In this document: piece by piece, positions 4,210-58,594 of the stretch | Layout: each line of letters starts with the position of its first letter | Position numbering within the stretch: the first letter of the stretch is position 1 | Notes under the pieces: generated by a model | What the model was told of the DNA's origin: nothing | Database searches by the model: none | Seen by the model: the letters and a program-made list of their open reading frames with translations, nothing else | Assembly (NCBI GenBank): GCA_045863295.1 | Contig: BTWA01000024.1 | Span: forward strand, 29,608-93,607 | Direction: 5' to 3' | Source: Candidatus Hydrogenedentota bacterium | GTDB taxonomy: Bacteria > Hydrogenedentota > Hydrogenedentia > Hydrogenedentales > SLHB01 | DNA length: 64,000 nucleotides | Program-made: the position numbers and the translations under genes

Positions 4210-4910
4210 GGCACCCTGGCCTCGTTTACTCCAGTCCGGTAACGTTTACGGCCAAACAGCGGCTCAGCCTCGCTGTAATTCCTCGTGCGATTGCGGGTGT
4301 CTTGCACGCTTCCTGTTCTACCTGCCGCGTCGAAAAGCGTGGACTCGATCACTGGAATACAGCCATGGCACGTACAGGCCATGCTGTTTTGTGTTTTTGG
4401 CACGAAACCTTGCCGTTGGCCATCTATACCTACCGAAATACGGGGTTTCACACCCTGACCAGCTATAGCTACGACGGCGAAATCGCTGCACGGCTCATTG
4501 AACCGTTTGGGTTGCATGCGCTGCGAGGGTCCTCGTCCCGTGGAGGGGCTGAAGCGTTGCGCGAGTTGGAGAAGGCCATTCAACTGGTGCCCATCGTGGG
4601 TATCACCAACGATGGCCCCAAGGGCCCCCGGCGGGAATCCAAGCCTGGTCCGGCGATCCTCGCGGCCCGAACCCAGAATCCCATAATTCCCAATGCGTTC
4701 GCGATTACGCGGTGCAAGCGCATGAAGTCCTGGGACCGCCTAATATTTCCCGCGCCTTTTTCACGGATTGTATGCGCGTACGGACCTGCCATCGATCCTC
4801 CGTCCGACACCAGCGAAGAGGCAATCGAGTCCACGCGTCTGGAGTTGGAGCTGGCCATGAACCGGTTGCAGGAATCTCTGGAATCCGAACTCAACGTCTC
4901 AAAAGGGTGA
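4206..4910 (+). CDS. DUF374 / lysophospholipid acyltransferase family protein
   Basis: Motifs CFWHE, SYSYDGE, RGSSSRGG, ITNDGPKGP, KSWDRLIFPAPFS. Confidence 0.85.
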   Translation: MRHPGLVYSSPVTFTAKQRLSLAVIPRAIAGVLHASCSTCRVEKRGLDHWNTAMARTGHAVLCFWHETLPLAIYTYRNTGFHTLTSYSYDGEIAARLIEPFGLHALRGSSSRGGAEALRELEKAIQLVPIVGITNDGPKGPRRESKPGPAILAARTQNPIIPNAFAITRCKRMKSWDRLIFPAPFSRIVCAYGPAIDPPSDTSEEAIESTRLELELAMNRLQESLESELNVSKG

Positions 4911-4998
4911 CTGGCAGCGCGGGTTCGCAAACACAGATCGACTTCAACTAATCTGAATCGCCCCCCCTCTCGAAAAGCCCGGCCCCGATGCCGCATAT

Positions 4999-7668
4999 AT
5001 GAAGGGCTCTACCATGAACCGGTTGCGTCTCCGCATTTGCTTGATTGCATTATTAACCAGCGTGGCCCAAGCAGACACCATTATCGCGTGGGAGTTTGAT
5101 TCGCCTCAGGACATAAACTACTGGGTACCCAACGCTCATTTAGCCAATGTAGAACAAATCGACGGAAAACTGGTTGCCGATGCGGTGGACAGCGATCCCT
5201 ACTTTTCATGCCTTGACCTCGCCCTGGATGCGACACCTTGGCAATACGTGATTGTACGCATTCGCGCAAGCGAATCCGGCCAGGGAGAACTCTTCTGGTC
5301 CGGCACCCGGGAAGGGCCTCACGGAGGCTTGTCGCAGGAAAAATCCACACCTTTCACCGTGACCAAAGGCAACTGGAATGACGTTGTCATCTATCCGTTC
5401 TGGCATACGGAAGGTTCGATTGATCAGTTGCGGCTCGACTTGTACAACGGCGCACACTATGAAATCGACTCCATCACAATAGGGGGTTGGAATCAGGAAT
5501 CCGATCCTTCCCTGGGCGAACCACAAACAGATCCTTGGCGGGATTGGCATTCCGTGCCGGGATCGGACGTGCATTTTTTCCGAGGCACCGGCGATTACTC
5601 TCTCATTCCATTCGCGATAATTCAGGCACGAGCGGAAATCGAGACTTCCTGTGCCTTTGTCTGGGCCACGCGCGGTCGTCCCGGAATGCATGAAGAGCCG
5701 TTTACGGTCAAGAAGGGTGACTGGCAGTACTTCAACCTGGAGATGGCCGGAAACCCGAATTGGCGCGACACGGTTGCGGTCGGTCTAAGAATGCCCGCCG
5801 GCGCATTTGTAGGGGAGTTTGGCTTCTCACAAACGCCGCAAGGGCCCCCCGTAATCCAGTCGATTTACTTTGGCATGGAGAATGGCGCCCCCCGAGCGGG
5901 ACGCCCCGCGTCGCTTATGCTACAAGTAGAGAATACAGGTGGAAAGCCCTCGATCTTGAACGACGTGGAATTATTTCCGGTGGAAGGGGCGATGTTGCAA
6001 AGCGACGTAGTTCAATCCATGGAACCCATCGAAATGGGTGATCGCACTTCCGTTCGATGGACTGTCGCGTTTTCGAATCCGGGTACGTACCAATTCTCCG
6101 CGGGCCGGGGTGGCGCGACCTATGTATCGTCTCCCATTCACGTGCTTCCGGCGCGGCGCATTGAACCGTTGGCGTATGTACCGCCGCCGCTACCGGTTCA
6201 TACCGATGCAGACATACTTGCGTATTACTTCCCGGGTTGGGACGCGGATGCGAAATGGGATCCGGTTCGCGGCACGGCCCCGCAACGCAAACCCATACTC
6301 GGCTACTACGACGAATCCAGTCCAGAAATCGTCGATTGGCAAATCAAATGGTCTGTCGAAAACGGCATAGACGGGTTTCTGGTCGATTGGTACTGGGTCA
6401 AAGGCTCGCAACATCTCACCCATTGGTTCGACGCGTACCGAAAAGCTAGGTACCGCGACCAGCTCAAAGTGGCGATCATGTGGGCGAATCACAACCCCCC
6501 GAACACACACAGCCGCGAGGACTGGCGCAATGTCACTCGGGAATGGATAGACAACTATTTCAGCCTTCCGGCCTACTACCGAATCGGCAATCGACCCGCC
6601 ATTTACCTCTGGGATCCGCGCAATCTGTTCAATGACCTTGGTGGGACGGAAGAGGTGAAGGCGGCGTTGGACGAATCGCAGGCCATGGCGCGCGCAGCGG
6701 GGTATGAAGGCATCGTCTTTATTGCCATGGGATATGGATTCGCGGCAAGCGATCTTGCGCGCATGCGCGCTGAAGGATTCGAAGGCGTTACCACCTACCA
6801 TGAATGGGGCGATGCCAACACCCCCGGCACGGGGGTTACAAAACCGTTTCAAATCGTTGCCGATACCGTGGAGACTTCCTGGAAAGCCCGCCACGATGCT
6901 GCGTTCCAAGCCGGACTGGCGTACTATCCCGTGGCCGATACCGGGTGGGACAGCCGCCCTTGGCATGGTGGAAAGAGCTATGTGCTCGACGGCCGTACAC
7001 CAGAACATTTTCGTACCATACTGGGCAAAGCCAAAGACTTTCTCGGGCGCACCGGAGGAAATACCATCGTGCTGGGGCCGATGAATGAATGGGGCGAAGG
7101 AAGCTATATCGAGCCGAATACCGAATACGGATTCGCCATGATGAACGCAATACGCGAAGTATTTGCATCGCAACCGGCGGATGGCTGGCCCGAAAATATT
7201 ACGCCGGAGGACGTCGCTCTCGGACCCTATGATTATCCGAAACTCGATCCGGTAACCTCGTGGGAGTTTGATAAGGGTCTCGACGGTTGGCGCGCCATGA
7301 TGGGTCTGGGCGACGTTCGCGTTCAAGATGGAGCCATGATGGCGACAACGTCATCGGCGGATCCCGCGTTCGTGGTGGAGCTTCGGAGCGTGCGTGCCAA
7401 AGATTTCAGCTCCCTGACCATCAATATGCAACTCGAAGGACCCTTGGAGACTGGCGAAACACTTCAAGTATTCTGGTCGAACAGCGGCGGTCCCACGAAT
7501 GAATCCGCAAGCGTTCATGTACCCCTCGCACAGGATGGAAAAATGCACACCTACTCCATACCCGTCGTCGAGAATCCCCGCTGGAGGGGAAGGATTTCGT
7601 TGCTGCGACTGGATCCCTGCAACCGCGCCGATGTGAAAGTGACCGTCGAAAACGTGAGACTGGAGTAG
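4999..7668 (+). CDS. Secreted multidomain glycoside hydrolase (GH99-like/WbsX-type catalytic domain)
   Basis: Signal peptide; AYYFPGW, PILGYYDE, GIDGFLVDWYW, GWDSRPW and NEWGEGSYIEP motifs. Confidence 0.75.
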   Translation: MKGSTMNRLRLRICLIALLTSVAQADTIIAWEFDSPQDINYWVPNAHLANVEQIDGKLVADAVDSDPYFSCLDLALDATPWQYVIVRIRASESGQGELFWSGTREGPHGGLSQEKSTPFTVTKGNWNDVVIYPFWHTEGSIDQLRLDLYNGAHYEIDSITIGGWNQESDPSLGEPQTDPWRDWHSVPGSDVHFFRGTGDYSLIPFAIIQARAEIETSCAFVWATRGRPGMHEEPFTVKKGDWQYFNLEMAGNPNWRDTVAVGLRMPAGAFVGEFGFSQTPQGPPVIQSIYFGMENGAPRAGRPASLMLQVENTGGKPSILNDVELFPVEGAMLQSDVVQSMEPIEMGDRTSVRWTVAFSNPGTYQFSAGRGGATYVSSPIHVLPARRIEPLAYVPPPLPVHTDADILAYYFPGWDADAKWDPVRGTAPQRKPILGYYDESSPEIVDWQIKWSVENGIDGFLVDWYWVKGSQHLTHWFDAYRKARYRDQLKVAIMWANHNPPNTHSREDWRNVTREWIDNYFSLPAYYRIGNRPAIYLWDPRNLFNDLGGTEEVKAALDESQAMARAAGYEGIVFIAMGYGFAASDLARMRAEGFEGVTTYHEWGDANTPGTGVTKPFQIVADTVETSWKARHDAAFQAGLAYYPVADTGWDSRPWHGGKSYVLDGRTPEHFRTILGKAKDFLGRTGGNTIVLGPMNEWGEGSYIEPNTEYGFAMMNAIREVFASQPADGWPENITPEDVALGPYDYPKLDPVTSWEFDKGLDGWRAMMGLGDVRVQDGAMMATTSSADPAFVVELRSVRAKDFSSLTINMQLEGPLETGETLQVFWSNSGGPTNESASVHVPLAQDGKMHTYSIPVVENPRWRGRISLLRLDPCNRADVKVTVENVRLE

Positions 7669-7727
7669 GCGTGCGGGATAAACCCCCTCTGTTCCTATCA
7701 AAACGCGAGCGTGTGGCTCATGACGAG

Positions 7728-7767
7728 ACTTGGGCAGGCGGCAGTTTCCGCTTCCGCCTGCCCAAGT
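7728..7767. terminator. 14-bp stem-loop between convergent genes
   Basis: ACTTGGGCAGGCGG(12 nt)CCGCCTGCCCAAGT perfect inverted repeat; no clear U-tract. Confidence 0.5.
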
Positions 7768-7784
7768 GACGCACCGCATTTCCG

Positions 7785-9233
7785 CTATGCGGTAAAGCCG
7801 GTTGCAGTTCCTTCTTCGATTACGCGAAATCCCACCAAAGCCCCGAGGTCGCGCATGCTTTGCAGGTGATCGCCGTAAAACACGACGCGATGTAACAGCG
7901 TCATCGTGTCCGTGCCCAATTGGCCCTCACCCCAGTTCTCGAATAGGCCGCGCGCATTCGCTACTTCAGTGACAAATTGCGTGCGGCAACCCAGCGAATC
8001 GTGTGTCACGTCGGTGATTTTGCCGGTAGATACCAGCATCGAGTCAAGGTTGGCAAGCTTCGCGCAGGTCACGGATTGCCCCACACGGTGTTCCACGTCC
8101 AGGGCCACGCCCCGGCCGCTGTCCGTCTGCGTGCGTATCGTGAACGGACGACGCTTGCTCGCGGCACCATCCATGCGCGTGGCCGACGTGCAGTGGAAAT
8201 GGATAAGCGCATTGCGCGCCACATCAATCACAGGATCGCTGATAAAGCCCGGTACACCAAACGCATAGGTAAACAGGAGCATGGTCAGCGTCGAATCCAT
8301 GTCGCCTTCACAAGCGCCCACATAGCCCTGATCATTCAACTTACTGAAGGCAAGGCATCCCTTCGCGGGTCCACCCATGCAGTTGGAACTGGTCACCGCA
8401 CAGGCATCGTTGGCCATCATGAGATTCTTCAGGGCCAGATAAAACCGTGCAGAGGCAACAATTTCTGGTTCTGTGGGTTCGACCACGTCTCTTGCGGGCC
8501 GTATCCAATATTTCTCCGCTTCCGCTTCCGCCTCCGGCAACGGCACGGACTCGAACGCAGCCTCGGTCTCTTCGACGGTGATGGGAATGAGTTCCACCCC
8601 CAGCTTAGCCTTGACAGCAGCCGCCTCGCAGGCGGCAGGCGTTCCCAGTGGTCCTTTTATCACAAGGATTCGGGATTGGCGAAGCCGTGCGGGAACTCGG
8701 AGCAGCGAGGCCGCGCGGTCGAGTTCACCCCAGTCGCTGGTGGGCATCAGCACCACCTTCTTGCCTTCTTTTTGCCAACGCGGAAAATACATCCAGCCAT
8801 GGCCGCTGAACGGCTGTGTGAAAACAACGGTGGGCAATCCCGAGTTTACGATGTGCTCCATGGCTTCCGCAGGCGCGCCACCGCCATGTCCCGAGAGGTG
8901 AAACATGATCACGGCATCCGCCTCGCCCAGCTGGCCGACCACCCGCGCCGGATCCTCCGGCGGTATGGTCTCGCCGCCGGTAAACGTGACATCCCCCAGT
9001 TTGGATTCGATGCCGGCAAGATAGGTTTTGAATTGATCGATTTCCTCGGTGGGCCGGGATAAGTAGATATCGCCTGTACGGCCGATGAAGACGGTATGAA
9101 TCTTGACAGGAGGCCGGTTCAGCCACTTTTCATCCTGTAGTGATAAGGCGACAGAAGCCATGGGTATGGCCAACAACGCGCCACTTGCTGCACTGCACCC
9201 CAGAAACTGACGGCGGGAAACGTGTGGACACAT
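7785..9233 (-). CDS. Tat-signal protein of the L-fucose/L-arabinose isomerase-like family
   Basis: SRRQFLG twin-arginine signal; CLAFSKLND.G..GACEGDMDS, HCT, CRTQ and HRVVFYGDH motifs. Confidence 0.7.
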   Translation of the reverse strand: MCPHVSRRQFLGCSAASGALLAIPMASVALSLQDEKWLNRPPVKIHTVFIGRTGDIYLSRPTEEIDQFKTYLAGIESKLGDVTFTGGETIPPEDPARVVGQLGEADAVIMFHLSGHGGGAPAEAMEHIVNSGLPTVVFTQPFSGHGWMYFPRWQKEGKKVVLMPTSDWGELDRAASLLRVPARLRQSRILVIKGPLGTPAACEAAAVKAKLGVELIPITVEETEAAFESVPLPEAEAEAEKYWIRPARDVVEPTEPEIVASARFYLALKNLMMANDACAVTSSNCMGGPAKGCLAFSKLNDQGYVGACEGDMDSTLTMLLFTYAFGVPGFISDPVIDVARNALIHFHCTSATRMDGAASKRRPFTIRTQTDSGRGVALDVEHRVGQSVTCAKLANLDSMLVSTGKITDVTHDSLGCRTQFVTEVANARGLFENWGEGQLGTDTMTLLHRVVFYGDHLQSMRDLGALVGFRVIEEGTATGFTA

Positions 9234-9478
9234 GACTCACCCTCCCGGAAATCCGGGTGCAGGTGCGCCGGCACGAACCAAAGCAAGCGCTGGGGGTCGA
9301 TTACTCTGTCAATGTCGCCTGGACAGGTTGCGCGCGAGCAGCCCTGATCCCCGACGTTGTTGTCGCGGCAATGCGACGCTGAGTTCTACCGTTGATTATT
9401 CTACACTGCACGCGCAGCTTCGTAAAGAGATCGTACCGGTAATCTATGCTATGATCTCCCGCTTTGGCAGGAGGCGGC

Positions 9479-11817
<2,339 letters not shown>

Positions 11818-45773: not shown

Positions 45774-48071
45774 CTATCCATTCGCAATCTGCACCGTGGG
45801 CCGGTCAATTGCCAACGCCGCCAGCGTCACCGCCGCGCTCTTCGCATGTTCCCCCACGTCCGCCGATGGCCCCACGCAACTCGGACAGCCTTCCTTGCAC
45901 GAGCAACCACTTATAAGCGACACCGCTGCCTCAAGCAATCGAGTGTGGTGCGTATACAACTTCTCGCTGAAACCCACACCGCCCGGCGAGGTTTCATACA
46001 AATAAATCGTGGGACGCTCCGAAAAAGGCGCCCGCAACATCCCCAACGCACGGATATCCGTGGGATCGCATAACACCTGCACCGGCGCCACCTGCCGGAG
46101 CGTGTTCGCAAGCCCATGCAAGGCCTCCGCCAAGTGCTCCTTCGTAATGGCCAGCCGCTCCGCTGTGTCCTCCGGAAACTCTATCCAATACGAAGCCGTG
46201 TGCATCGTGGACTCGGGTAAATCGATTTCGCCCCAACCCACATTCTCATGCGTCCCGAATTTGATCTTCTTGTAAATGCTCGGCAGCCACGTCACGCTTA
46301 CCTCGCCGCAATGCTTGGTCGCCTCGTTCACCGCCGTCCAGTCAAAACTATCGATGACCTTTACGTCCACCTTGATCTGCGCGTCCGTGTAGTAGTCCAC
46401 ATCCACCGGACGCGCATACGCCTTGCGATCCTCCAGATCCAATTCATCAATGGTGTACTGCGCGCTCTGGTGCATGTACACCGCGTTCTTGTAGACCTCC
46501 ACCGGCGCGGCAAACAAATCCACTTCCCCAATCACCCGGCCGTTGTCGGTCGTGTCCAGAATCACCACGTTGCCCGGGGCCGCCGTCCGCAGGCTGATGT
46601 CCTCCGCCGGATAGGTGTCCGCGCTCCAATGCCACTTGTCCCGCACGTGACGCAATATCTTTTGTTCCGCCAGATACTCCAGGATCTCCCGCGTCGAAGC
46701 CGCGTCCACACCAAAGGTCTCGCCGTCCTTGAAGGGTATTTCAAACGCGGCGCACTTCATGTGGCTCGTCATGATGATCAAATTGTTGGGGTCTACCGTC
46801 GCGCTTTCCGGCGCTTGTTCAAAAAAATACTCGGGATGATTGATGATGTACTGATCCAGCGGCGCGCTCGACGCAATCAAAATCACCAGCGATACCCCCG
46901 ATCGCCGCCCCGCGCGCCCCGCCTGCTGCCACGTGCTTGCCACGCTCCCCGAATACCCCGTCATGATGCAGACGTCGAGGGAACCGATATCAATGCCCAA
47001 CTCAAGCGCGTTCGTGCTCACCACCGCCATGATGTCGCCGTTGCGCAAACCCTGCTCGATCGCGCGCCGCTCCGTCGGCAGATAACCGCCCCGGTAGCCG
47101 CGCACAAGCTGATCGCTCTTGCCCAGTTTGCGCACCGCTTCCTTCAAGTACGTCGTCAGCACTTCCACCCGGATCCGGCTGCGGGCAAATACAATCGACT
47201 GCATGTCCCGCGACAACACTTGCGACGCGATCCGGGCCGCCTCCTTCACCGATGACGCCCGGATGCCCAGTTCCGCCTGCACCACCGGCGGATTGTAAAA
47301 CAGAAAATGCTTCTCGCCCGCCGGCGCCCCGTTGTTGTCAATCAAGCGTATCGGCTTCTCCACAACGCGTTCCGCCACTTCCTTCGGATTGTTAATCGTC
47401 GCGCTGCAACAAATGAACTGCGGCTCGGACCCATAAAACGCGCAAATCCGTTTCAACCGTCGAAGCACATTCGCAAGGTGGCTCCCGAACGTCCCCCGGT
47501 AATGATGCACCTCGTCAATCACCACATACTTCAGATTCTCAAACAGCCGCATCCAAATCGTGTGGTGGGGGAGAATCCCCGAATGAAGCATGTCCGGGTT
47601 TGTCACAACGATGTGCCCCGCGTTCCGCACCGCCTTCCGCGCCGAAGCCGGCGTGTCCCCGTCGAACGTAAACGTGCCGATCTTCACCTCGAGGTCATCA
47701 ATCGTCGTCTGCAACTCCGTGACCTGATCCTGCGACAACGCCTTCGTCGGAAACAGATACAACGCCCGGGCGTTCGGGTTCTCAATAAGCGTGTTCAACA
47801 CCGGCACGTTGTAACACAGCGTCTTCCCCGAAGCCGTCGGCGTCACCACGCAAATGTGCTCCCCACGAAGCACCGCTTCCACCGCCTCCGTCTGATGCGT
47901 GTAAAGGTTGTGGATGCCCCGCTTCTGAAGCCCGTCCACCAAGCGCGGATTCAAACCCGCTGGAAATCCACCATACCGAGGCTCCTGGGGCGGTATTGTC
48001 CGCCACGAAGTCAGATTACGGGAAAACTGGGCATCCCCGCGCAACCGGTCCACGGCTTGTGCTGCATTCAT
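45774..48071 (-). CDS. mrfA: YprA/MrfA-like DEAH helicase with C-terminal DUF1998 zinc domain
   Basis: TPTASGKT, FPTKALSQDQ, DEVH, TNALELGIDIG, QQAGRAGR and CSCKEGCPSC motifs. Confidence 0.88.
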   Translation of the reverse strand: MNAAQAVDRLRGDAQFSRNLTSWRTIPPQEPRYGGFPAGLNPRLVDGLQKRGIHNLYTHQTEAVEAVLRGEHICVVTPTASGKTLCYNVPVLNTLIENPNARALYLFPTKALSQDQVTELQTTIDDLEVKIGTFTFDGDTPASARKAVRNAGHIVVTNPDMLHSGILPHHTIWMRLFENLKYVVIDEVHHYRGTFGSHLANVLRRLKRICAFYGSEPQFICCSATINNPKEVAERVVEKPIRLIDNNGAPAGEKHFLFYNPPVVQAELGIRASSVKEAARIASQVLSRDMQSIVFARSRIRVEVLTTYLKEAVRKLGKSDQLVRGYRGGYLPTERRAIEQGLRNGDIMAVVSTNALELGIDIGSLDVCIMTGYSGSVASTWQQAGRAGRRSGVSLVILIASSAPLDQYIINHPEYFFEQAPESATVDPNNLIIMTSHMKCAAFEIPFKDGETFGVDAASTREILEYLAEQKILRHVRDKWHWSADTYPAEDISLRTAAPGNVVILDTTDNGRVIGEVDLFAAPVEVYKNAVYMHQSAQYTIDELDLEDRKAYARPVDVDYYTDAQIKVDVKVIDSFDWTAVNEATKHCGEVSVTWLPSIYKKIKFGTHENVGWGEIDLPESTMHTASYWIEFPEDTAERLAITKEHLAEALHGLANTLRQVAPVQVLCDPTDIRALGMLRAPFSERPTIYLYETSPGGVGFSEKLYTHHTRLLEAAVSLISGCSCKEGCPSCVGPSADVGEHAKSAAVTLAALAIDRPTVQIANG

Positions 48072-48991: not shown

Positions 48992-49071
48992 CCAAAACCA
49001 TCCATACCGAAGCCCCCCCTTTGGACTGCGCCGGCAAAGGCGACAGCCGTCGACGGCGCTTTGGCTCTCGG
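48992..49071 (+). repeat. 80-bp REP-like element, left copy
   Basis: CCAAAACCATCCATACCGAAGCCCCCCCTTTGGACTGCGCCGGCAAAGGCGACAGCCGTCGACGGCGCTTTGGCTCTCGG; matches 56494-56574 except for one indel. Confidence 0.95.
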
Positions 49072-49241
49072 CAAATGCGGCTGCGTGGACAACCAACAAA
49101 GCGTCTATAGCGTGGCACAGCCAATAGCCCCTAATGAAACAAGCCCCATACCCCGGTGCAATACAAAACGGAACAGGCCATAACGCTGTCCCCCTGGCCC
49201 CGGAGGGCCCGAACATCCTCCTACCACTGCTAGGCCACATG

Positions 49242-50084
49242 CTATCGACTCCGCTTCCAGGGGCCATAGTCCATGTGCGCCGTCAATCCAAGCAACGTCT
49301 CAATCTGCCCCGCCGCGCGCATGACCTGATACAGGTCCAACGACTCAACCGTCGTGTTCGCCTTCACGTAATCATTCAAATACGTCTCGGATTTCGATTC
49401 GACACCGTTGCGCGTGCATACCAGATACGCCACGGATTCCGCCTCCAACTCCGCCTGCGCATGATTGGGCCGCGGGCGCTCGGGAATGTTCAGGTAGCTG
49501 TCCTGTCCCAAGTGGCCGAGGAACAGATGGGCCAGTTCATGTGCAATGGTGACAAACCGCACGGGCGCGGTGTGATTGCGGTTAGCATACACCTTGTACT
49601 CGCTGGGCTTCTTATCCCCGGACACCGTCAATCGATGGATCGATCCGGCACGGCCGTCGCCCGCGTCGAACGATTCAAACGAAATGTGCTTCGCTTTCAT
49701 TTTCGCAAGAAACAACGGGATGTCTTTATCCGACACCGACCCGCTGGCAAAGAAAGAGGCCACATCCTTCGGCAACGGTTTGCCTTCGGTGTCCAGCACA
49801 TCGTATACCAGCGCCACCGGCCCAAAAGGCCAGAGTATCAATAGAGGCCGCGCGTGTTCCTTAGGCTTCCGCTCGAATCGTGTCCGCCAATCGTACGCCG
49901 AAGCCGCATACGTCAATCCCGGCTTTTGCACATGCAACAGCATCGCGTTAAACGGCGCAAAGTTTCGAAGCCGTTTGGTGAATTTAAGGAGTTCCAGATA
50001 ATCCTTGCTCGACGTGTAAAGCCGCGACTCCTCGAATAATTGGTCAAGTAGCGAACGGGCGGCTTCATTATCGAAAAGACCCAT
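49242..50084 (-). CDS. ArdC-like N-terminal ssDNA-binding domain fused to an ImmA/IrrE-type HExxH metallopeptidase
   Basis: GGAGG RBS before ATG 50084; FAPFNAMLLHVQKP...W...F.R...LILWP...VYDVLDTEGKPLP; TIAHELAH...ELEAESVAYLVC. Confidence 0.75.
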   Translation of the reverse strand: MGLFDNEAARSLLDQLFEESRLYTSSKDYLELLKFTKRLRNFAPFNAMLLHVQKPGLTYAASAYDWRTRFERKPKEHARPLLILWPFGPVALVYDVLDTEGKPLPKDVASFFASGSVSDKDIPLFLAKMKAKHISFESFDAGDGRAGSIHRLTVSGDKKPSEYKVYANRNHTAPVRFVTIAHELAHLFLGHLGQDSYLNIPERPRPNHAQAELEAESVAYLVCTRNGVESKSETYLNDYVKANTTVESLDLYQVMRAAGQIETLLGLTAHMDYGPWKRSR

Positions 50085-50124
50085 CACAGCCTCCGTATAC
50101 ACATCCCTTCGGCCCACAGATTAT

Positions 50125-51498
50125 GTTACGGCTTGACTCCATTTTGCACCCCTAATAAAATCGTATTTCGCTTGACTTGTACGTGGGCATGGTTGCGGCT
50201 TGACTCCATTTTGCACCCCTAATAAAATTGCGTCGGCATCGTACTTTTTGCCAGCTAGTTGCGGCTTGACTCCATTTTGCACCCCTAATAAAATGCATCC
50301 AACAGTCACCAGACAGGCTATGACGTTGCGGCTTGACTCCATTTTGCACCCCTAATAAAATTATTTCACGGTCACACGCGACGGATGAATAGTTGCGGCT
50401 TGACTCCATTTTGCACCCCTAATAAAATCACGACCGGGTACAGCATGATTCAATTCAGTTGCGGCTTGACTCCATTTTGCACCCCTAATAAAATCAACTC
50501 CGCCCCATGGTCCGCGAGAATATCGTTGCGGCTTGACTCCATTTTGCACCCCTAATAAAATGCGCATCGCTTCCACTTGACCAGCGTTCATGTTGCGGCT
50601 TGACTCCATTTTGCACCCCTAATAAAATGCTTCATTGGAGTGGAAGAAAGACGGCCGGGTTGCGGCTTGACTCCATTTTGCACCCCTAATAAAATTTGAT
50701 CCTGTCGTCCGTGCCCGGCTTGGAGTTGCGGCTTGACTCCATTTTGCACCCCTAATAAAATCCCGCGCCCACAGGCTCACTCCGGCCATCAGTTGCGGCT
50801 TGACTCCATTTTGCACCCCTAATAAAATCCTAACGGGCCTGTGAGCGAACGCGAGTCTGTTGCGGCTTGACTCCATTTTGCACCCCTAATAAAATCCCAT
50901 TGGTAGACGGTCCGATAGGGCTGTAGTTGCGGCTTGACTCCATTTTGCACCCCTAATAAAATTTAAACCGCTCAATGCTCTCCCACTCCACAGTTGCGGC
51001 TTGACTCCATTTTGCACCCCTAATAAAATGAACCTTCTCGACCGTAACCAAGCCCCGCTGTTGCGGCTTGACTCCATTTTGCACCCCTAATAAAATTCCA
51101 TCGGAGGCAAGACCTACTCGCACAACGTTGCGGCTTGACTCCATTTTGCACCCCTAATAAAATATCGCCTGTTAGTGGCGCGCTTCAAACCATGTTGCGG
51201 CTTGACTCCATTTTGCACCCCTAATAAAATAATCGCGACGGCGGGGAACGTTCCCGCGTGTTGCGGCTTGACTCCATTTTGCACCCCTAATAAAATGACC
51301 GAGCGATTCATTCAATTCGCATTCTGGTTGCGGCTTGACTCCATTTTGCACCCCTAATAAAATGCACAGCAGCCATTGTCCAGCATTTCCTGTAGTTGCG
51401 GCTTGACTCCATTTTGCACCCCTAATAAAATAAGATCGAGTTGCGTCATCATTTCACGATCGTTGCGGCTTGACTCCATTTTGCACCCCTAATAAAAT
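50125..51498 (+). CRISPR. Type II-C CRISPR array: 21 repeats of 37 bp, 20 spacers of 29-31 bp
   Basis: Repeat GTTGCGGCTTGACTCCATTTTGCACCCCTAATAAAAT; the first copy has a G4A change. Strand inferred from tracrRNA complementarity and the in-repeat promoter. Confidence 0.99.
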
Positions 51499-51510
51499 CT
51501 AGGGTCTCGT

Positions 51511-51566
51511 AAGGGCCTGTTTTTGCTGGGTTTAGCGTGGTTTCGACTCTGCAAAAACAGGCCCTT
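51511..51566. promoter_or_regulatory. 16-bp inverted repeat between the array and cas2
   Basis: AAGGGCCTGTTTTTGC(24 nt)GCAAAAACAGGCCCTT. Confidence 0.6.
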
Positions 51567-51622
51567 CTTGTCGAGTTTTCGCTGAGTTGGGAGACTTTTC
51601 TCGCGCAATAGCGCGCGATGCT

Positions 51623-51976
51623 TCAGAACAATGCCATCTGGCCTTGGTCTGGCAGTGGCCGACTCTCCGACCGTGCATAGAAGTGAAGCATGTTTTCGTA
51701 TTGCTTGTCCGTGAAAATCAAGATAGCCACTTTGCCCCCATGCGGCAGCATACGTCGAATCTTCGTGACAAGTGCTTCAGTCCGTTCCCTGCTCACGCAG
51801 CAGCGCATATAGACAGAAAACTGCGCCATCTCGAAACCAAGATCGAGGAGGTCCTGCCTGAACCGGGTCGCCTCTTTACGCTCATTCCTATCCAGAACTG
51901 GCAAATCGAACATTACAAGCATCCACATGACTCGATACCCGCTCATAAGAGTTATCGGGAGACGCGCGTCTTCCAT
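51623..51976 (-). CDS. cas2: CRISPR-associated endonuclease Cas2 (alternative start 51946)
   Basis: SGYRVMWMLVMFDLP, FRQDLLDLGFEMAQFSVY and FTDKQY type II Cas2 motifs. Confidence 0.97.
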   Translation of the reverse strand: MEDARLPITLMSGYRVMWMLVMFDLPVLDRNERKEATRFRQDLLDLGFEMAQFSVYMRCCVSRERTEALVTKIRRMLPHGGKVAILIFTDKQYENMLHFYARSESRPLPDQGQMALF

Positions 51977-51978
51977 GG

Positions 51979-52893
51979 TCAGTCGTCCGCTATCGAAATC
52001 CGCAGCCCATCGGGCAACACCAATTTGCGCTTACGCCCTTCGCATACGTCTGCCAGCGATCGCGTCAATCGGAGCAAACACTCGGTCACAGGGCTGGACA
52101 CACCCTCAAAAATCAAGTCCAGACCGGTGACCCCGATGAGTCTTTGCTTGGCGTTCGAATCCACAGTGGGTATTCCTTCAACGGCCCTCGCATGCGAATA
52201 AACGATCATGTCCACCAACGGACGAAACGGCTCCATCAGATCATCCGCCAGCGGCATGGTGTCGCGGGCGTTGCAGTGATGAATTCCAAACGCAGGATGC
52301 AGTCCGGCTAACATGATGGCCCGGACCACAGCGGATCGAAGGACGGTGTAACCATAATTAAGCAGCGCGTTCTCACCCCCAAGGTCCCGATCTCGGCGAA
52401 ATCCCGGCCCAAACAGAAGCGGAAAGTAAATCCGCGCGGCTTCTCCCTCTGCGTTGCCTGCGTCACCGCTTCGGACACGCCTCCAAAGTGTGTTAAGCCG
52501 CTCACTTTCCTTTCCCGTGCAGATTGCGAGTACCTCCGCCTGGCCCCGTATCTTTGCTGCAACAATCTGTTGCCACATTCGTTTGGAAGTCGTCTCGCCG
52601 AGTGCCGCCTGAGCGCGTATCCGGCCCGACTGATACTCATGGCTTTCGACAGGTAAAAGGATGGACGCGGGCAGAAAGCGATGGTCGCAGAGGATAAGCG
52701 GAGCACACTGCGCTGCCAACGCATGCAACAACTCCGCAGTGCAAGTGATACCATGGCCTGAAACGAGGACCACTTCGAGATCTTCAAGGGGTAAACGCCC
52801 CACCTCTCCGCCGTTTTCGGACACAATCAGAAAGCCTCTATATTTGTGCAGATGGCGGCCCGAACCGCTGATTTCAACTCCCCGGCGAATCAT
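51979..52893 (-). CDS. cas1: Type II CRISPR-associated endonuclease Cas1
   Basis: SGDAGNAEGEAARIYF, NALLNYGYTVLR, GIHH and LADDLMEPFRP motifs. Confidence 0.97.
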   Translation of the reverse strand: MIRRGVEISGSGRHLHKYRGFLIVSENGGEVGRLPLEDLEVVLVSGHGITCTAELLHALAAQCAPLILCDHRFLPASILLPVESHEYQSGRIRAQAALGETTSKRMWQQIVAAKIRGQAEVLAICTGKESERLNTLWRRVRSGDAGNAEGEAARIYFPLLFGPGFRRDRDLGGENALLNYGYTVLRSAVVRAIMLAGLHPAFGIHHCNARDTMPLADDLMEPFRPLVDMIVYSHARAVEGIPTVDSNAKQRLIGVTGLDLIFEGVSSPVTECLLRLTRSLADVCEGRKRKLVLPDGLRISIADD

Positions 52894-55800
52894 CGCAAGG
52901 GTCCGATAAATAGCGAATTCGGCCTGCGGGCGTTACCTTTAGAAAACGGACTCGCGCTTGCCTTAGCCCATCCGCGCTGCCCTTGTACACAAAGTTAAAA
53001 GGGTCGCCCTTGTCACGGGTCCTGCTGTCGGCATTGGCTTCAAAATGCTCTGCCAGTGCGATTTGTTTCTCCGACATTCTCTGTATGTAGAATATCGCCC
53101 GCCGTCCTTTATGCTCCATTTCCAGCATATCTCGATTGAATAAAGTAAAGAGATGCCGCCCCGCAGGAGCTTGCTCATTTGTGGAAACGTAACTCTTACG
53201 CCTTCTCCAATTGGCATCGAACAAGGTGACTAGTTTACCAATCCAACTTCCCGTTTCGGCATCCTCGAATACTTCAAGGTATGCATTTCCATCTGGCTTT
53301 AGACCCTTATGCAGTGGTTGGGTCCTCGGATAAACCAACGCTATCGGCTCGATCAAGCGCACTCGTCGTATTCCCTTCTGGTTCAGAAACTCCTGCAAAT
53401 TCCGGACAGTCTCTTTGGTTTCGTCACCCAGCAAAGCGACCAAGCGCGCGTCAATGTCTTGGTGTCCCGCATCGAACCGCTCTAATCCTTCAAATGCAGC
53501 CAAAAAATCCATTCCTGTCAACTTGGCGGCAATTTCGGCGCGCAGACGTTTCCCCTTGATCGATTGCAGTTTCTTCCCCGTGACCAATCGCGCGGGTATG
53601 CGATGCACGGCGTTGCCCCGCGTATCGAGTCGCTTCGCGACGCCATAGGCCGTGCTATTATGCAACTCCGCCTCGATGCCATGGTCCAGCTTATGAGAAA
53701 CGACCATCTGGCGCAGAATTGTCACTGCCGATTGCCGGAAGCCGGACCAGGGTTCCGGCAGCCCATCCAGAAACTGATAGACCCCGTCTCTTTCAAACCG
53801 GCCATGGATGGACGCCGCCTGCTGAAGGAACGCCCGATCCATTAGACCGATTACAAGGGCATCGACAGCGTGGTGCCGGTGATCGTTGCGGTTTTTTTCA
53901 CCAACGGGTGTATCCCCATCCTCTCGACCAGGATTGACCTCGTCAAGAATGGAATTCAAACCGAGATGATGACGAAACATGGCGGTCAGGCGGCCCGGCA
54001 GGCAAACAACACGATAGTCCTGACCTGGTTCAAAAAGAACGGCCAAGTACTCCCTCGCCAGCCGCGCAATGTATTGGCTGTCGGTCAATTGCCGTGCGAT
54101 GAAGTCCCGATCGCTTTGAAATCTTTCCATCGCATTTTCAGCAAAGCGCATACGTTTGTTCGGAGGAAGCAATTCCGCGCGATTGAGAATTGCAGTCCAT
54201 TGCTCGCTGTGCCCCCAAGCCTCGAATGGCGTTCGTTCCCGCTTCTCCCGGTTCGCCGATTGCTTGCACAAGACTTTGTTCATCGTGCCATCGTCCAGAG
54301 TCCGTGAAAACGGAAGAATATGGTCGATTTCAACGGCACTCGTGAATAGCAGGGTGCTGGGAATGTTCTCGCCGGTGTATACGCAACACTTCTGATTGGC
54401 CGAAAGTTCCTCCCAAAGTCTGAGCCGGAAAATGTTTTCCCGGTTTGCCTTGAGATGAAACTCTTCGCGCAGGCGTTTGGCGCAGTGGTCGTTTATTTCT
54501 TTGTTTTTGGCCTGTTCTGCCGCAATTTCCCGCTTCTGCCGCAAGCTGTTCTTCAGGTCGCGTAGAACTTCCAAGTGGATTTCACTTGGCGGGCCATGAT
54601 ACTTAATAATCTCATTCACTACCTTACGCAATTGGTTGAGCGCAATATGAACGGTGGGATTCGTAACTTTGCCGTATCGCTTCTCAGGTCCGGCCGCAGG
54701 ATGTCCGCCACGCTCTGGGTCGGGTACGACATGCCGCTCCAATACCTCGCCGTAGTACGGCAATCGCTCTCGGCGGGTGCCTGTTGCCAAAGCAGAGTGG
54801 GACTTATAGCCTGCCCTAACCACGGCTTCGGAATACGGAATTACGTCCTGCACCAGTTGCTCAAGAACGTTGCGCGTTGCAGTCTTGCCTAAGCGTCCGT
54901 GTCCATCGGGCAGAGGAGTGCAGGCTACCGCTGTGGCTCGAATTCGGTCTAGTTTGAATGTCTCCATCAACCATTGAACAAGTGCTTCTTCGTCGTCCTC
55001 TTCCAGCAGCGCCACGACGATGCGCTCCTGATCGTCATCGGAAAGGTCGTACCACGCAGATCCGTATCGGTCTTTGTACGCCAGTGCTTCGGACGTGGTG
55101 TCGCATGAGAATCCGTTACGGCCTCCAACCGTTTCATGAGAAAACGTCGTATCTCGTAATCCCAAGAGCTTCCGCATTGCCTCAAAGCTAAGCTCGCCCT
55201 TTGGCTTTTTCGCGCCCCTTGGTTGACACAACGAGGCTGCTAGTTTGTCACGTTCATCTATCGTCAAACTGCGAGCGCGTAATGTCCTTCCGTCAATTAC
55301 ATGAAGATGATTCAACTCTTGATAGATGCGCAAACGCTGCACAAGCGGAAGGGCTTTCGATGCACGTTCCTCGTTGCGCTCAAATGTGCACCTGCCCACA
55401 GGGGGTGATTTGAGGGGCCGTTGAAAGAATATGATTTCACGGAGTTTTGCGAAGACTTCTTTTGTTAGTGTGTCGGGATGAAACTTGCTTTGAACTTCCC
55501 ACAGTTGATTGAATTCGGCTTCGATTAACTCGCGCGAAGCGTAAAAATCATAGTATTCCTCATTCTTTTCCTTTCCGCCCCGACCAACGCCAACTCGAGA
55601 AAGCTTTCGCGCCCGGACTGGCAAGCCGTTGCTTCGCCTGAAGTGCAGATACTTGCCAACCGTTCCATGCTCCGCAATCTTGTCCGCAGTCTCTTTGACG
55701 GCTGACTGGATCATTCCAGTTTCGTTGTCCTTTGCATCACTCTTTCTGTTGCTTTTGAATCCACGCCTTTGGTTTAAGTGAAAAATGGCCCGGCCGATTT

Positions 55801-56149
55801 CATGTAATGCCAATTCTTCTTCGACTCCGCGAGCCCGAAGTAAATAGGGATCGAGCTTGGCAACGTTTCTTCGATCCTTCTCATCTAACGGCATGAGATC
55901 ATAGAGGCTGAGTGTGTTTAGTAACCGTCCGCGCCGGTCAAGATATCGGTCTCGATTGCGGCGCATTGAACGTGCAAGTCGCCGATCCACTGCCTTAGAA
56001 GTTCCGTCTTTGGGTTTGCGGCCGTCTGGATAGATTCGAACACCCATGTCTTCTATGGAACAGGGTCTATTCCCGGACAATTGGTCGAGCCCAAGAACGC
56101 ACCAGCCAATGGAGTTTGAGCCAATATCGATTGCCAACCGGTAACTCAT
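52874..56149 (-). CDS. cas9: Type II-C Cas9, 1091 aa
   Basis: RuvC-I LAIDIGSNSIGW, Arg-rich bridge helix, RRGFKSNRK, RuvC-II IHLEVLRD, HNH IDHILPFS...NKVLC...N, RuvC-III HHAVDA; no csn2 or cas4; GGGAGAG RBS before ATG 56149. Confidence 0.98.
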   Translation of the reverse strand: MSYRLAIDIGSNSIGWCVLGLDQLSGNRPCSIEDMGVRIYPDGRKPKDGTSKAVDRRLARSMRRNRDRYLDRRGRLLNTLSLYDLMPLDEKDRRNVAKLDPYLLRARGVEEELALHEIGRAIFHLNQRRGFKSNRKSDAKDNETGMIQSAVKETADKIAEHGTVGKYLHFRRSNGLPVRARKLSRVGVGRGGKEKNEEYYDFYASRELIEAEFNQLWEVQSKFHPDTLTKEVFAKLREIIFFQRPLKSPPVGRCTFERNEERASKALPLVQRLRIYQELNHLHVIDGRTLRARSLTIDERDKLAASLCQPRGAKKPKGELSFEAMRKLLGLRDTTFSHETVGGRNGFSCDTTSEALAYKDRYGSAWYDLSDDDQERIVVALLEEDDEEALVQWLMETFKLDRIRATAVACTPLPDGHGRLGKTATRNVLEQLVQDVIPYSEAVVRAGYKSHSALATGTRRERLPYYGEVLERHVVPDPERGGHPAAGPEKRYGKVTNPTVHIALNQLRKVVNEIIKYHGPPSEIHLEVLRDLKNSLRQKREIAAEQAKNKEINDHCAKRLREEFHLKANRENIFRLRLWEELSANQKCCVYTGENIPSTLLFTSAVEIDHILPFSRTLDDGTMNKVLCKQSANREKRERTPFEAWGHSEQWTAILNRAELLPPNKRMRFAENAMERFQSDRDFIARQLTDSQYIARLAREYLAVLFEPGQDYRVVCLPGRLTAMFRHHLGLNSILDEVNPGREDGDTPVGEKNRNDHRHHAVDALVIGLMDRAFLQQAASIHGRFERDGVYQFLDGLPEPWSGFRQSAVTILRQMVVSHKLDHGIEAELHNSTAYGVAKRLDTRGNAVHRIPARLVTGKKLQSIKGKRLRAEIAAKLTGMDFLAAFEGLERFDAGHQDIDARLVALLGDETKETVRNLQEFLNQKGIRRVRLIEPIALVYPRTQPLHKGLKPDGNAYLEVFEDAETGSWIGKLVTLFDANWRRRKSYVSTNEQAPAGRHLFTLFNRDMLEMEHKGRRAIFYIQRMSEKQIALAEHFEANADSRTRDKGDPFNFVYKGSADGLRQARVRFLKVTPAGRIRYLSDPCDDSPGS

Positions 56150-56180
56150 GTCTCTCTCCCCGTATGTCCTAAAACAGTGC

Positions 56181-56220
56181 TTGACGATACTGTTATACAT
56201 TTAGTAGCATAAGTCTGCAA
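56181..56220. promoter_or_regulatory. Overlapping divergent promoters for tracrRNA (+) and cas9 (-)
   Basis: Plus strand TTGACG(56181)-N18-TAGCAT(56205). Minus strand TTGCAG(56220-15)-N17-TATAAC(56197-92). Confidence 0.5.
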
Positions 56221-56288
56221 AATGGAGTTTGTTAGCCGTTAACAAGTTACAAACACCAAATGTGGCAGGCTGCGGCCTGCCTTTTTTT
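56216..56288 (+). ncRNA. tracrRNA (about 73 nt)
   Basis: Anti-repeat TGCAAAATGGAGT-TTGTT-AGCCGTTAAC pairs with repeat nt 1-24; ends in a GGCAGGC-TGCG-GCCTGCC-T7 terminator. Confidence 0.9.
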
Positions 56289-56493
56289 GTGTCTCACCCC
56301 AAAATAGTAAAAATTCTATTAAGATCCGCCTTTTGACCTATTCGACGTCTGCAACCTTCGCTAGCATTAATTGTCAACTAAACACAGATCAATCCGCGCC
56401 ACCTAAACCTCCTCCAACTCCCCTAAATCTCGACTGCAACAAGACAAACCCAAAATAGTAAAGGGGTGAATCCCGTAGAAGCGATGCCAACGA

Positions 56494-56574
56494 CCAAAAC
56501 CATCCATACCGAAGCCACCCCCTTTGGACTGCGCCGGCAAAGGCGACAGCCGTCGACGGCGCTTTGGCTCTCGG
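56494..56574 (+). repeat. 81-bp REP-like element, right copy
   Basis: Direct repeat of 48992-49071 with one extra A in the C-tract. Confidence 0.95.
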
Positions 56575-57037
56575 TGCAGGCGTCCCAGTATACGCCCCAG
56601 TATCCGCCCGCTGACCCCACAGGCAGTGCTATCCCAACCACAATCACAACGCAACGACTTACAACGCTTTCAACCCCGTCCACCCCTTGAATCGTCAAAA
56701 AGTAGAGCCACTGCACCCCCTTGAATCCAATTCAGTGGCGCTTCGCCCCCGGCGACATTCCGCTCAAGGTGCAACAGCCTCAACCTAATAAGAAGAACCG
56801 ATAGCCAGCGCAAATCGCTGGGACAATTGCAGGAGCGTACAGTCCCCTGGAATCCGCGAGGGGAATCGCCGCGCGCCACGGGTTGTCTGTCGAAATCCCG
56901 GTAGAATATAATAGACAGACACTAATGTCGTGCGGCAGACCGCCCCCTCTCGGGCGGAACGATTTCCGTGGGATGTCCGGCGATTATCGCCAAGTACGCC
57001 GCCGGCCATGGTTTTTCGAGGAGCCCCGTTACCCCTT

Positions 57038-58594
57038 ATGGCCAAATTCGTCTTGGACTTGCACAAAGAGGGGAGTAGCATCAGCACTTTTCCCGTGGGC
57101 ACCGACGGCCTTGTCATCGGCCGGGCCTCCGAATGCGATATTGTCCTGCCCGATTCCATGGTCTCCCGCCGGCATGCCCGGGTCTGGCTCGAAGGGGAAA
57201 GCCTCAAAGTCGAAGATCTGGGGTCACGAAACGGCATTATCGTCAACGGCGAGCGCGTGGTCCGGCTCAAGGTCGACGAGGGCGACGAAGTCACCGTCGG
57301 CACCCATACCTTTCGTATCGTCAAATCCCGAGTCGACAAGGTCCTGTCCGACACCGGCTCGATGATCTCGTATGAACGCGCCGAAGACATGTACGAAAAA
57401 ATGGTGCAAGAGGGCGACGCCGAAACGATGCCCATCCTCTACCAAGCGGCGCAACTCCTCGGCACGGTATTCGATCTCGATGAACTGTTGGACAAGATCC
57501 TCGAACTCATTTTCGAGGCCATCCCCGTGAAGCGCGGCTACATCTTGATTGCCGCATCCGACGGCAAAGCGCCGACCATCCGCGCCGGCCGGCCCAAAGA
57601 CAAAAAGAACGGTTATCCCACGCTCAGCCAGACCCTCGTGGAGCAGGTCTTCACGTCCAAGAGCGCATTGCTGACCGTAAATGCCCAGCAGGATTTCTCC
57701 TATTCCGAAAGCGTGATCGACCAGAAGATCCAGGCCGTCATGTGCGTGCCATTGTGCGGACGTACCGCGGAACTGGTCGGCGCAATTTACGTCGATTCCG
57801 GAGAGAGCGAACGCATCTTTAAAATCAGCCAACTCAAACTGCTCACCGCCATAGGTCGTGTTACCGGTGTGGCTGTCGAAAACGCGCGCCTGCACCAGGA
57901 GGCCGTCGAACGCGAACGCCTCGCGGCCATCGGCAAAGCCACCGCCGGCCTCGGTCATTGCGTCAAAAATATCCTTACCGGAATCAAGGGCGGCAGCGAA
58001 TATATCGAACTCGGTGTGGACGAGGAAGCCTGGAAGTATGTCAAAAAAGGCTGGCCCCTCGTGCGCCGCTCGATCGATCGCATCGAAGACCTCGTGATCA
58101 ATTTGATGACCTATTCCCGCGACCGCGAACCCGAGCGGATGAGCACCGACATCAACTCCATTATCTCCGAAATTCTCGCGGTCACCACCGACAACGCAAA
58201 GAAATCCAAAGTCGACATCGTGTTTCAACCCGGGGAAATCGGCACGGCCCACCTCGACGGCCTCGGCATTTACCGCGCCCTCTTGAACCTGATTCAAAAC
58301 GCCATCGAAGCCTGCGAAGAGCACGGCGGTACCGTTACAATTCGCACCCGCACGGACGAAGGCGCGATTTACGTCGAAGTGCAGGATACCGGCGTGGGCA
58401 TCAAGGAAGAATTCTACAGCGAGTTGTTCAAAGCCTTCAGCAGCACCAAAGGCTCGCGTGGCACCGGACTCGGTCTGGTTTGTTCTCAAAAGATCATTGA
58501 AGAACACGGCGGCGTCATCCGCGTAAAGAGCAAGGAAGGGCAGGGATCCACGTTCACTGTTTTCCTACCCCGAAGCACAACACTTCAGAAGTAG
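57038..58594 (+). CDS. FHA-GAF-histidine kinase
   Basis: IGRASECD...SRRHA...DLGSRNG FHA; GAF; H-box GLGHCVKNIL; NLIQNA, DTGVGI and GTGLGL. Confidence 0.9.
   Translation: MAKFVLDLHKEGSSISTFPVGTDGLVIGRASECDIVLPDSMVSRRHARVWLEGESLKVEDLGSRNGIIVNGERVVRLKVDEGDEVTVGTHTFRIVKSRVDKVLSDTGSMISYERAEDMYEKMVQEGDAETMPILYQAAQLLGTVFDLDELLDKILELIFEAIPVKRGYILIAASDGKAPTIRAGRPKDKKNGYPTLSQTLVEQVFTSKSALLTVNAQQDFSYSESVIDQKIQAVMCVPLCGRTAELVGAIYVDSGESERIFKISQLKLLTAIGRVTGVAVENARLHQEAVERERLAAIGKATAGLGHCVKNILTGIKGGSEYIELGVDEEAWKYVKKGWPLVRRSIDRIEDLVINLMTYSRDREPERMSTDINSIISEILAVTTDNAKKSKVDIVFQPGEIGTAHLDGLGIYRALLNLIQNAIEACEEHGGTVTIRTRTDEGAIYVEVQDTGVGIKEEFYSELFKAFSSTKGSRGTGLGLVCSQKIIEEHGGVIRVKSKEGQGSTFTVFLPRSTTLQK

Follow-up and report, generated by a model that had tools for sequence, protein, structure and literature searches.

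Type II-A CRISPR systems, for example that of Streptococcus pyogenes, resemble the locus described below in having Cas9 and a tracrRNA, and RNase III processes the duplex of repeat and anti-repeat. Their array is transcribed from a single leader promoter, the repeat contains no promoter and the 5' ends of the crRNAs arise by trimming, unlike the arrangement proposed here. Zhang et al. are said to have reported, in 2013, crRNA promoters embedded in the repeats of the type II-C system of Neisseria meningitidis. Transcription from such repeat-embedded promoters is now a general description of II-C arrays (PMC5965381, PMC7038990, PMC12080349, PMC12477760), and according to the cited accounts all II-C systems studied to date use internal promoters (PMC12080349, PMC12477760, PMC7038990). 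In Neisseria, initiation occurs at the sixth nucleotide of each spacer (PMC12477760, legend of Extended Data Fig. 4), and the terminal nine nucleotides of the repeat resemble an extended -10 element (PMC7038990). The promoters of Campylobacter jejuni and Clostridium cellulolyticum likewise lie in the repeat, are read opposite to the cas genes and are accompanied by a mutated 'extra' first repeat; the accounts cited give a -10 or extended -10 only, and report no -35 (PMC12080349, PMC7038990). The usual II-C array is described as convergent with the cas genes and as having its mutated repeat at the cas-distal end (PMC12080349, PMC7038990), and the 'extra' repeat is stated to gather 5' mutations while having to retain its promoter (PMC12080349). 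For Flavobacterium columnare and F. psychrophilum, a repeat-encoded upstream 'TTG', 33–35 bp before each spacer, has already been proposed (PMC8092290, PMC10309648). It follows the Bacteroidetes grammar (-33 TTG, -7 TAnnTTTG), and these accounts name three bases and no full -35/-10 pair at canonical spacing (PMC8092290, PMC10309648). In the main texts of the open-access literature, this proposal was the only one that we found for a -35 box in II-C repeats. A divergent tracrRNA has been reported for a Bordetella II-C locus (PMC4624362), and cutting of the pre-crRNA by RNase III with tracrRNA is given as the general type II pathway (PMC5965381).

The locus analysed here lies in a window of 64,000 nucleotides from a Candidatus Hydrogenedentota bacterium. 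It comprises cas9 (52874–56200, minus strand; 1108 amino acids, with RuvC_III, HNH_4 and Cas9_a domains at E values of 6.9e-21, 2.1e-20 and 1.7e-07), cas1 (51979–52893, minus strand; PF01867, E = 3e-30) and cas2 (51623–51976, minus strand; PF09827, E = 1.3e-17). The three genes are directly adjacent, the array is next to them, and Pfam searches found neither csn2 nor cas4 at the locus. The gene content is therefore that of type II-C, and we assign the locus to this type of CRISPR-Cas9 system. The closest relatives of its Cas9 come from Candidatus Hydrogenedentota; the protein has 59% identity to one Hydrogenedentota Cas9 and approximately 35–44% to the II-C Cas9s of Burkholderiales. Divergently from cas9, on the plus strand, the consensus scan detected a promoter-like site (56181–56210, TTGACG-18-TAGCAT), followed by a predicted tracrRNA (56215–56290) that contains an anti-repeat from 56216, complementary to the 5' part of the repeat as in other II-C systems, and a terminator hairpin (56264–56281) followed by seven T residues. 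Rfam gave no match across 49000–58000 at E <= 1. Since both the promoter-like site and the terminator of the tracrRNA lie on the plus strand, the plus strand of the array should be the crRNA sense. From the tracrRNA and the promoter motifs we infer that the array is read opposite to the cas operon, toward cas2, with its degenerate repeat at the cas-distal end.

The array (50125–51498, plus strand in the crRNA sense) contains 21 copies of a 37-nt repeat, which alternate with 20 spacers of 29–31 nt. Twenty of the 21 repeats share the identical sequence GTTGCGGCTTGACTCCATTTTGCACCCCTAATAAAAT. The exception is the first repeat (50125–50161, plus strand), the cas-distal, oldest and 'extra' copy, whose single substitution, G4A, falls in the crRNA handle and outside both hexamers. 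The last repeat (51462–51498, plus strand) is cas2-proximal, at the site where spacer acquisition is expected in II-C arrays (PMC12080349). A listing of the repeats and the consensus scan confirmed what the initial annotation had recorded, namely TTGACT at nt 9–14 (for example at 50133, 50266 and 51470) and TAAAAT at nt 32–37, exactly 17 bp apart, in all 21 copies on the crRNA strand. In the second repeat, for example, the hexamers occupy 50200–50205 and 50223–50228 of the plus strand. Ten of the 12 hexamer positions match the consensus, so that the repeat has the near-consensus hexamers at 17 +/- 1 bp that are expected of a canonical housekeeping-sigma promoter. The repeat ends with its -10 hexamer, an arrangement shared with Neisseria and Campylobacter, and the TGn that precedes it in those systems is absent, again as first annotated; the bases there are TAA in 21 of 21 repeats.

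The scan found 25 promoter-like sites between 49500 and 57000, compared with 5.8 +/- 2.4 in shuffled sequences, an excess that is inflated, because 21 of the 25 are array sites copied from one sequence and the array counts as a single event. By our own arithmetic, which assumes equal base frequencies, a repeat ending in a -10 would show a match of at least 5/6 to TTGACA at 16–18 bp by chance with a probability of 3 x 19/4096, or about 1.4%. At least one purine occurs at positions 6–8 in 18 of the 21 ten-nucleotide stretches that follow the repeats (20 spacers and the leader), a frequency that carries no information on initiation.

Neisseria meningitidis resembles this locus in its cas9-cas1-cas2 and tracrRNA content and in an array read toward cas2 (PMC5965381, PMC7038990, PMC12477760). 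The -10 forms the last six bases of each repeat in both, and the Neisseria crRNA 5' ends, which are described as arising by initiation a few nucleotides into a 30-nt spacer, parallel the mode that we propose here; RNase III is also common to both and is presumably dispensable for the 5' end. The two differ in repeat length (36 nt in Neisseria, 37 nt here) and in promoter structure: published accounts give Neisseria an extended -10 within the terminal nine nucleotides, whereas the present repeat has no TGn and instead carries a 5/6 -35 at 17 bp. The presence of that -35 also distinguishes it from the Campylobacter and Clostridium promoters as described, and its full -35/-10 pair from the Flavobacterium element, which shares its location upstream in the repeat.

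The promoters of the host itself provide a standard for judging this motif. In the genome (6.34 Mb, 56.6% G+C), we took the 150 nt upstream of 34 operon-heading tRNA genes and recorded the best match to TTGACA-16/18-TATAAT, the score being a consensus match and not a mapped transcription start. Scores of at least 8.5 were obtained for 21 of the 34 regions and for none of the 34 antisense counterparts, and scores of at least 9.5 for 10 of the 34, compared with 0.37% of 3000 random 150-mers. Among the 21 tRNA promoters, the -35 is TTGACA in seven and TTGACT in seven; 15 have a spacing of 18 bp, six have one of 17 bp and none has 16 bp; four carry TGn; and in 11 the -10 ends 11–16 nt ahead of the mature tRNA. 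The strong contrast between sense and antisense indicates that the host uses a -35/-10 grammar, with the pattern TTGAC(A/T), 17–18 bp and TAnAnT. On the same scale of consensus match the repeat scores 10, which only four of the 34 tRNA regions reach, so that it is as good as the best tRNA promoters. Both strands of the whole genome contain 208 other sites of this quality at 17 bp, in addition to the 21 in the array. The pattern scan described below also gave a free-standing TTGACA-17-TAGAAT in another Hydrogenedentota genome (L222, 1500–1560, minus strand), a chance match that agrees with the promoter grammar at the host tRNA genes.

We propose the following scheme. Each repeat would act as a full housekeeping-sigma promoter, with its -35 at nt 9–14, a 17-bp spacer and its -10 in the last six bases; RNA polymerase would start about 6–8 nt into the following spacer and read toward cas2. 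Initiation there would give each crRNA, from the outset, a 5' end with about 23–25 nt of guide, close to the 23–24 nt foreseen in the initial annotation and in keeping with the reported sixth-nucleotide start in Neisseria (PMC12477760). The next repeat in the transcript would pair with tracrRNA, and the 3' end would come from RNase III or from run-off into a hairpin past the last repeat. Such a hairpin is predicted in the leader-side region between the array and cas2 (51499–51600, plus strand), at approximately 51510–51566, followed by a U-rich stretch; its minimum free energy is -43.4 kcal/mol (z = -5.4), equal stability occurred in none of 200 shuffles, and the consensus scan placed a terminator-like site at 51502–51518. 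The hairpin and the U-rich stretch are likely to serve as a stop for array transcripts converging on cas2. The scheme is no 'distinct route' to crRNA 5' ends, as had been suggested; that wording was too strong, since initiation within the spacer from a repeat promoter would be the same as elsewhere and the make-up of the promoter alone differs. Repeat-embedded promoters are a textbook II-C feature, and the mechanism is therefore not new. What is new is the apparent composition of the promoter, a -35 and a -10 at 17 bp, lying partly in the crRNA handle and lacking TGn, together with an apparent fit to the -35-dependent promoters of the host and the 37-nt repeat length. From the motif, the layout, the host grammar and the conservation in relatives described below, we infer transcription starts within the spacers and a contribution of the -35, and we regard functional repeat promoters of this kind as probable.

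In this scheme nt 9–14 would serve twice, as the -35 box and as part of the crRNA:tracrRNA duplex. RNAcofold of repeat nt 1–24 with the predicted tracrRNA pairs nt 1–9 and 11–24 (-48.3 kcal/mol); U10 is unpaired and faces a 4-nt bulge of the tracrRNA, the partner of G11 is a U, and nt 12–14 belong to the upper stem. The -35 hexamer thus covers the bulge and the beginning of the upper stem, and its placement at the mismatched bulge in the initial annotation is roughly right. Because the hexamer lies inside the conserved handle, selection on the promoter is inseparable from the constraints of Cas9 and tracrRNA, which could by themselves account for its conservation. This overlap admits another explanation, in which the promoters are active through the terminal -10 only and TTGACT is a look-alike by-product of the duplex handle with little effect on transcription. 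The pairing of nt 12–14 with tracrRNA suits that explanation; on the other hand, a 5/6 -35 at the optimal 17 bp would be expected to contribute in a host that builds its promoters on TTGAC, as polymerase reads DNA regardless of the origin of the sequence.

Comparison with close relatives bears on both readings. A search of 135 genomes of the phylum gave four Cas9s with 56–61% identity to that of the window (G079, G105, G066 and G089, of which G105 corresponds to L001 and G089 to L002). Cas9 is common in the phylum generally, with a match in 42 of the 135 genomes. All five repeats of this clade, including that of the window, are 37 nt long and have the form GTTGCGGC-TTGACY-17 nt-TA[A/T/C]AAT, so that the -35/-10 motif reported initially is kept in 5/5 and, with the host grammar, is supported in silico as a complete promoter motif on the crRNA strand. 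Within nt 1–22 the only variable base is nt 14, at the sixth -35 position, and it covaries with the tracrRNA: the pair is T:A in the window and C:G in L001, in which a change from GGAGT to GGGGT compensates in the tracrRNA. Both the invariance, which makes the hexamer indistinguishable from the handle, and the covariation favor a by-product of the duplex. However, the tracrRNA side of the internal loop has changed, from TTGTTA in the window to TTACAA in L001, whereas the TTG on the crRNA side has not, which argues for a contribution of the -35.

Free variation in the clade is found at nt 23–25 and 29–31, which make up six of the nine positions immediately ahead of the -10, and the third position is the sole variable base of the -10. 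This pattern fits the footprint expected of a -10 under selection and is not decisive for the -35; the terminal TAnAAT could alternatively reflect a constraint of the Cas1-Cas2 integrase. In G066 (L335), the first of 13 repeats has five changes, all within nt 1–12, and an unaltered -10. This repeat and the G4A copy of the window fit the 'extra' repeat of the published account, which decays from its 5' side and keeps its promoter (PMC12080349). In G105 (L334, L001), repeat 41 of 45 has TTCAAT in place of TACAAT, with loss of A2 of the -10, and a change in the upper stem, showing that individual promoters can be lost. About 40 bases past the last repeat (51499–51540 in the window, and the corresponding regions in L333, L334, L335 and L236) contain scattered conserved positions, for example AGGG close to the repeat and GGTTTAG about 30 nt further on, which may be a leader motif for spacer integration.

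The wider survey of related repeats places this clade among other II-C systems. A search with the window Cas9 in genomes and metagenomes yielded 160 loci, 115 of which have arrays, with 64 distinct full-length repeats; no metagenome relative exceeded 44% identity. Nearly all of the 64 are 36-nt repeats of the Burkholderiales type, ending in TAGACT or TAAACT and lacking a -35, and a -35 of at least 5/6 occurs only in L001 and in L011 of Deferribacteraceae (TTGACC-16-TGcTATAAT). The approximately 58 repeats of the Burkholderiales type accompany Cas9s of the family to which that of the window belongs; they lack a -35, and most of them lack TGn as well. That family can evidently do without a -35, and this again favors activity through the -10 only. 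In the Cas9 tree (in which the row L002 represents a wrong ORF, end branch 10, and was disregarded), the window and L001 form a well-supported group with L011 and with L026 of Nitrospirillum, the nearest outgroup, which has a weaker motif (TGGACC-16-TAAGCT). The union of L011 and L026 with the window clade (SH-aLRT 100) involves long branches and may be due to long-branch attraction. Pattern scanning of contigs with the -35 left open gave 24 stretches, one of them an array (L001, 44 matches) and 23 of them single chance matches; with both boxes specified, the matches listed were mostly single chance matches, together with the arrays of L001 and L002.

We extended the survey to arrays belonging to other Cas9 clades of the phylum and to relatives of one clade in other phyla, and scored 91 distinct oriented II-C repeats after dropping 15 truncated or unorientable consensus sequences. 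All 91 end in TAnnnT, which is the rule by which repeats were oriented and kept. A match of at least 5/6 to TTGACA is present in 10 of the 91, exclusively at a spacing of 16 or 17, and in none at the other 23 spacings tested; as the repeats surveyed are kin, these counts are descriptive and do not constitute a test. The 10 comprise the five of the window clade, L011, and the repeats of another Hydrogenedentota clade (L363, TTGACC-16-TACACT), Kiritimatiellia (L371, TTGACC-17-TACATT), Desulfarculia (L377, TTGACA-16-TACACT) and Planctomycetota (L378, TTGAAA-16-TACAAT). A putative complete promoter within the II-C repeat is recurrent in several phyla and not peculiar to the window. TGn is absent from nine of the 10, which would fit compensation of a missing TGn by a good -35 and counts against TTGACT as a look-alike. 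Many further II-C repeats keep only TTG at nt 9–11, with poor remaining -35 bases (e.g. TTGTGG and TTGGGG), so that TTG at this position may be an inherited feature of the handle, as an explanation by the -10 only would have it. Taking these observations together, we consider it unlikely that the -35 has little transcriptional effect, and we retain the reading in which both hexamers function.

Type II-C Cas9 loci occur at three separate places in the genome of the window organism, and their repeats are unrelated. One (L352, contig C27 of G000) has cas9 (7643–11218), cas1 (6748–7830) and cas2 (6412–6741), all on the minus strand, and an array (3729–6364) of 40 repeats of 37 nt with TTGCCT-17-TACACT. 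Another (L351, contig C6 of G000) has cas9 (8085–11210) and cas1 (7202–8092), both on the minus strand, and an array of 36-nt repeats ending in TATACT and lacking a -35. Two unrelated arrays of the same genome thus have both the 37-nt length and the 17-bp spacing. In the survey set, the true 37-nt repeats are the five of the clade and that of the C27 array, and the spacing is 17 bp in all six. Repeats of 36 nt with TTG at nt 9–11 have a spacing of 16 bp, which none of the 21 host tRNA promoters uses, and some 36-nt repeats achieve 17 bp by a hexamer placed one base earlier (L371). A link between the 37-nt length and promoter spacing, raised in the initial annotation as a possibility, is plausible on these grounds.

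Transcription of the array might instead begin mostly at or ahead of its first repeat and yield a single long pre-crRNA, which RNase III would cut together with tracrRNA, the internal promoters being silent or minor in vivo. An RNase III gene is present in the genome, and such cutting is the general type II pathway (PMC5965381). There is, however, little place for the promoter that this would require: 7 nt separate the 5' end of the array from the start of an ORF read in the divergent direction (49242–50117, minus strand), leaving no room for an external leader promoter, and the consensus scan found no other promoter-like site on the plus strand from 49500 to 50133. Moreover, 21 near-consensus promoters of the host type would need to be silenced, and the II-C systems studied all use internal promoters according to the accounts cited above (PMC12080349, PMC12477760, PMC7038990). 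We regard a single long transcript as improbable. Transcription of the minus strand from the cas2 side, continuing the cas operon and making the plus-strand motif irrelevant, is very improbable: repeat:anti-repeat complementarity is symmetric and does not by itself fix the strand, and the degenerate repeat is distant from cas2, in agreement with leader-proximal models for CRISPR systems of other types, but the promoter-like site of the tracrRNA and its terminator (a G+C hairpin and T7) are on the plus strand only, in the same arrangement in the relative L001, the consensus scan found no promoter-like site on the minus strand of the repeats, and II-C arrays are described as normally convergent, their mutated repeat being the cas-distal one (PMC12080349, PMC7038990).

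Transcription from the repeats themselves, as we propose, would explain guides that need no processing in II-C systems and the absence of a transcriptional leader. For the present locus it yields a directly testable prediction of crRNA 5' ends. If a full promoter fits in the handle and is tuned to the host, it would place a third constraint on the sequence and length of the repeat, in addition to Cas9/tracrRNA binding and Cas1-Cas2 integration. More tentatively, for a considerable share of II-C systems the repeat may be dual-coded, its sequence and length being shaped by both the host RNA polymerase and Cas9: the bulge and upper stem of the handle would double as the -35, lengthening from 36 to 37 nt would set the 17–18 bp preferred by the host, and a good -35 would replace TGn. 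This is possible, although we would not presume it. Were it true, sigma-factor compatibility would be a hidden barrier, or a step of adaptation, in the horizontal transfer of Cas9. A host-tuned promoter within the handle would also matter for predicting how arrays are oriented and where crRNAs end in uncultured organisms, for designing minimal guide arrays that transcribe themselves and for understanding the adaptation of Cas9 systems to a new host once transferred horizontally.

The genes flanking the locus include a DEAD-box/MrfA-type helicase with a Zn-binding MZB domain (45774–48071, minus strand) and an FHA-GAF-HATPase sensor kinase (56930–58594, plus strand); an ORF beyond the tracrRNA (56785–57435) had no Pfam match. 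The ORF that adjoins the first repeat (49242–50117, minus strand) has a weak IrrE/Peptidase_M78 domain (E = 2.1e-5) and reads away from the array; its own promoter would need to sit within the array, or else read-through from the cas operon feeds it. Finally, the run of another sample (X1, probably DNA) gave six short contig pieces for the locus, and a 97-nt contig of this run joins 50659–50698 to 51257–51289. It connects two repeats over a distance of 558 nt and has 24 differing letters between the joined pieces, which points to a related strain with other spacer content.
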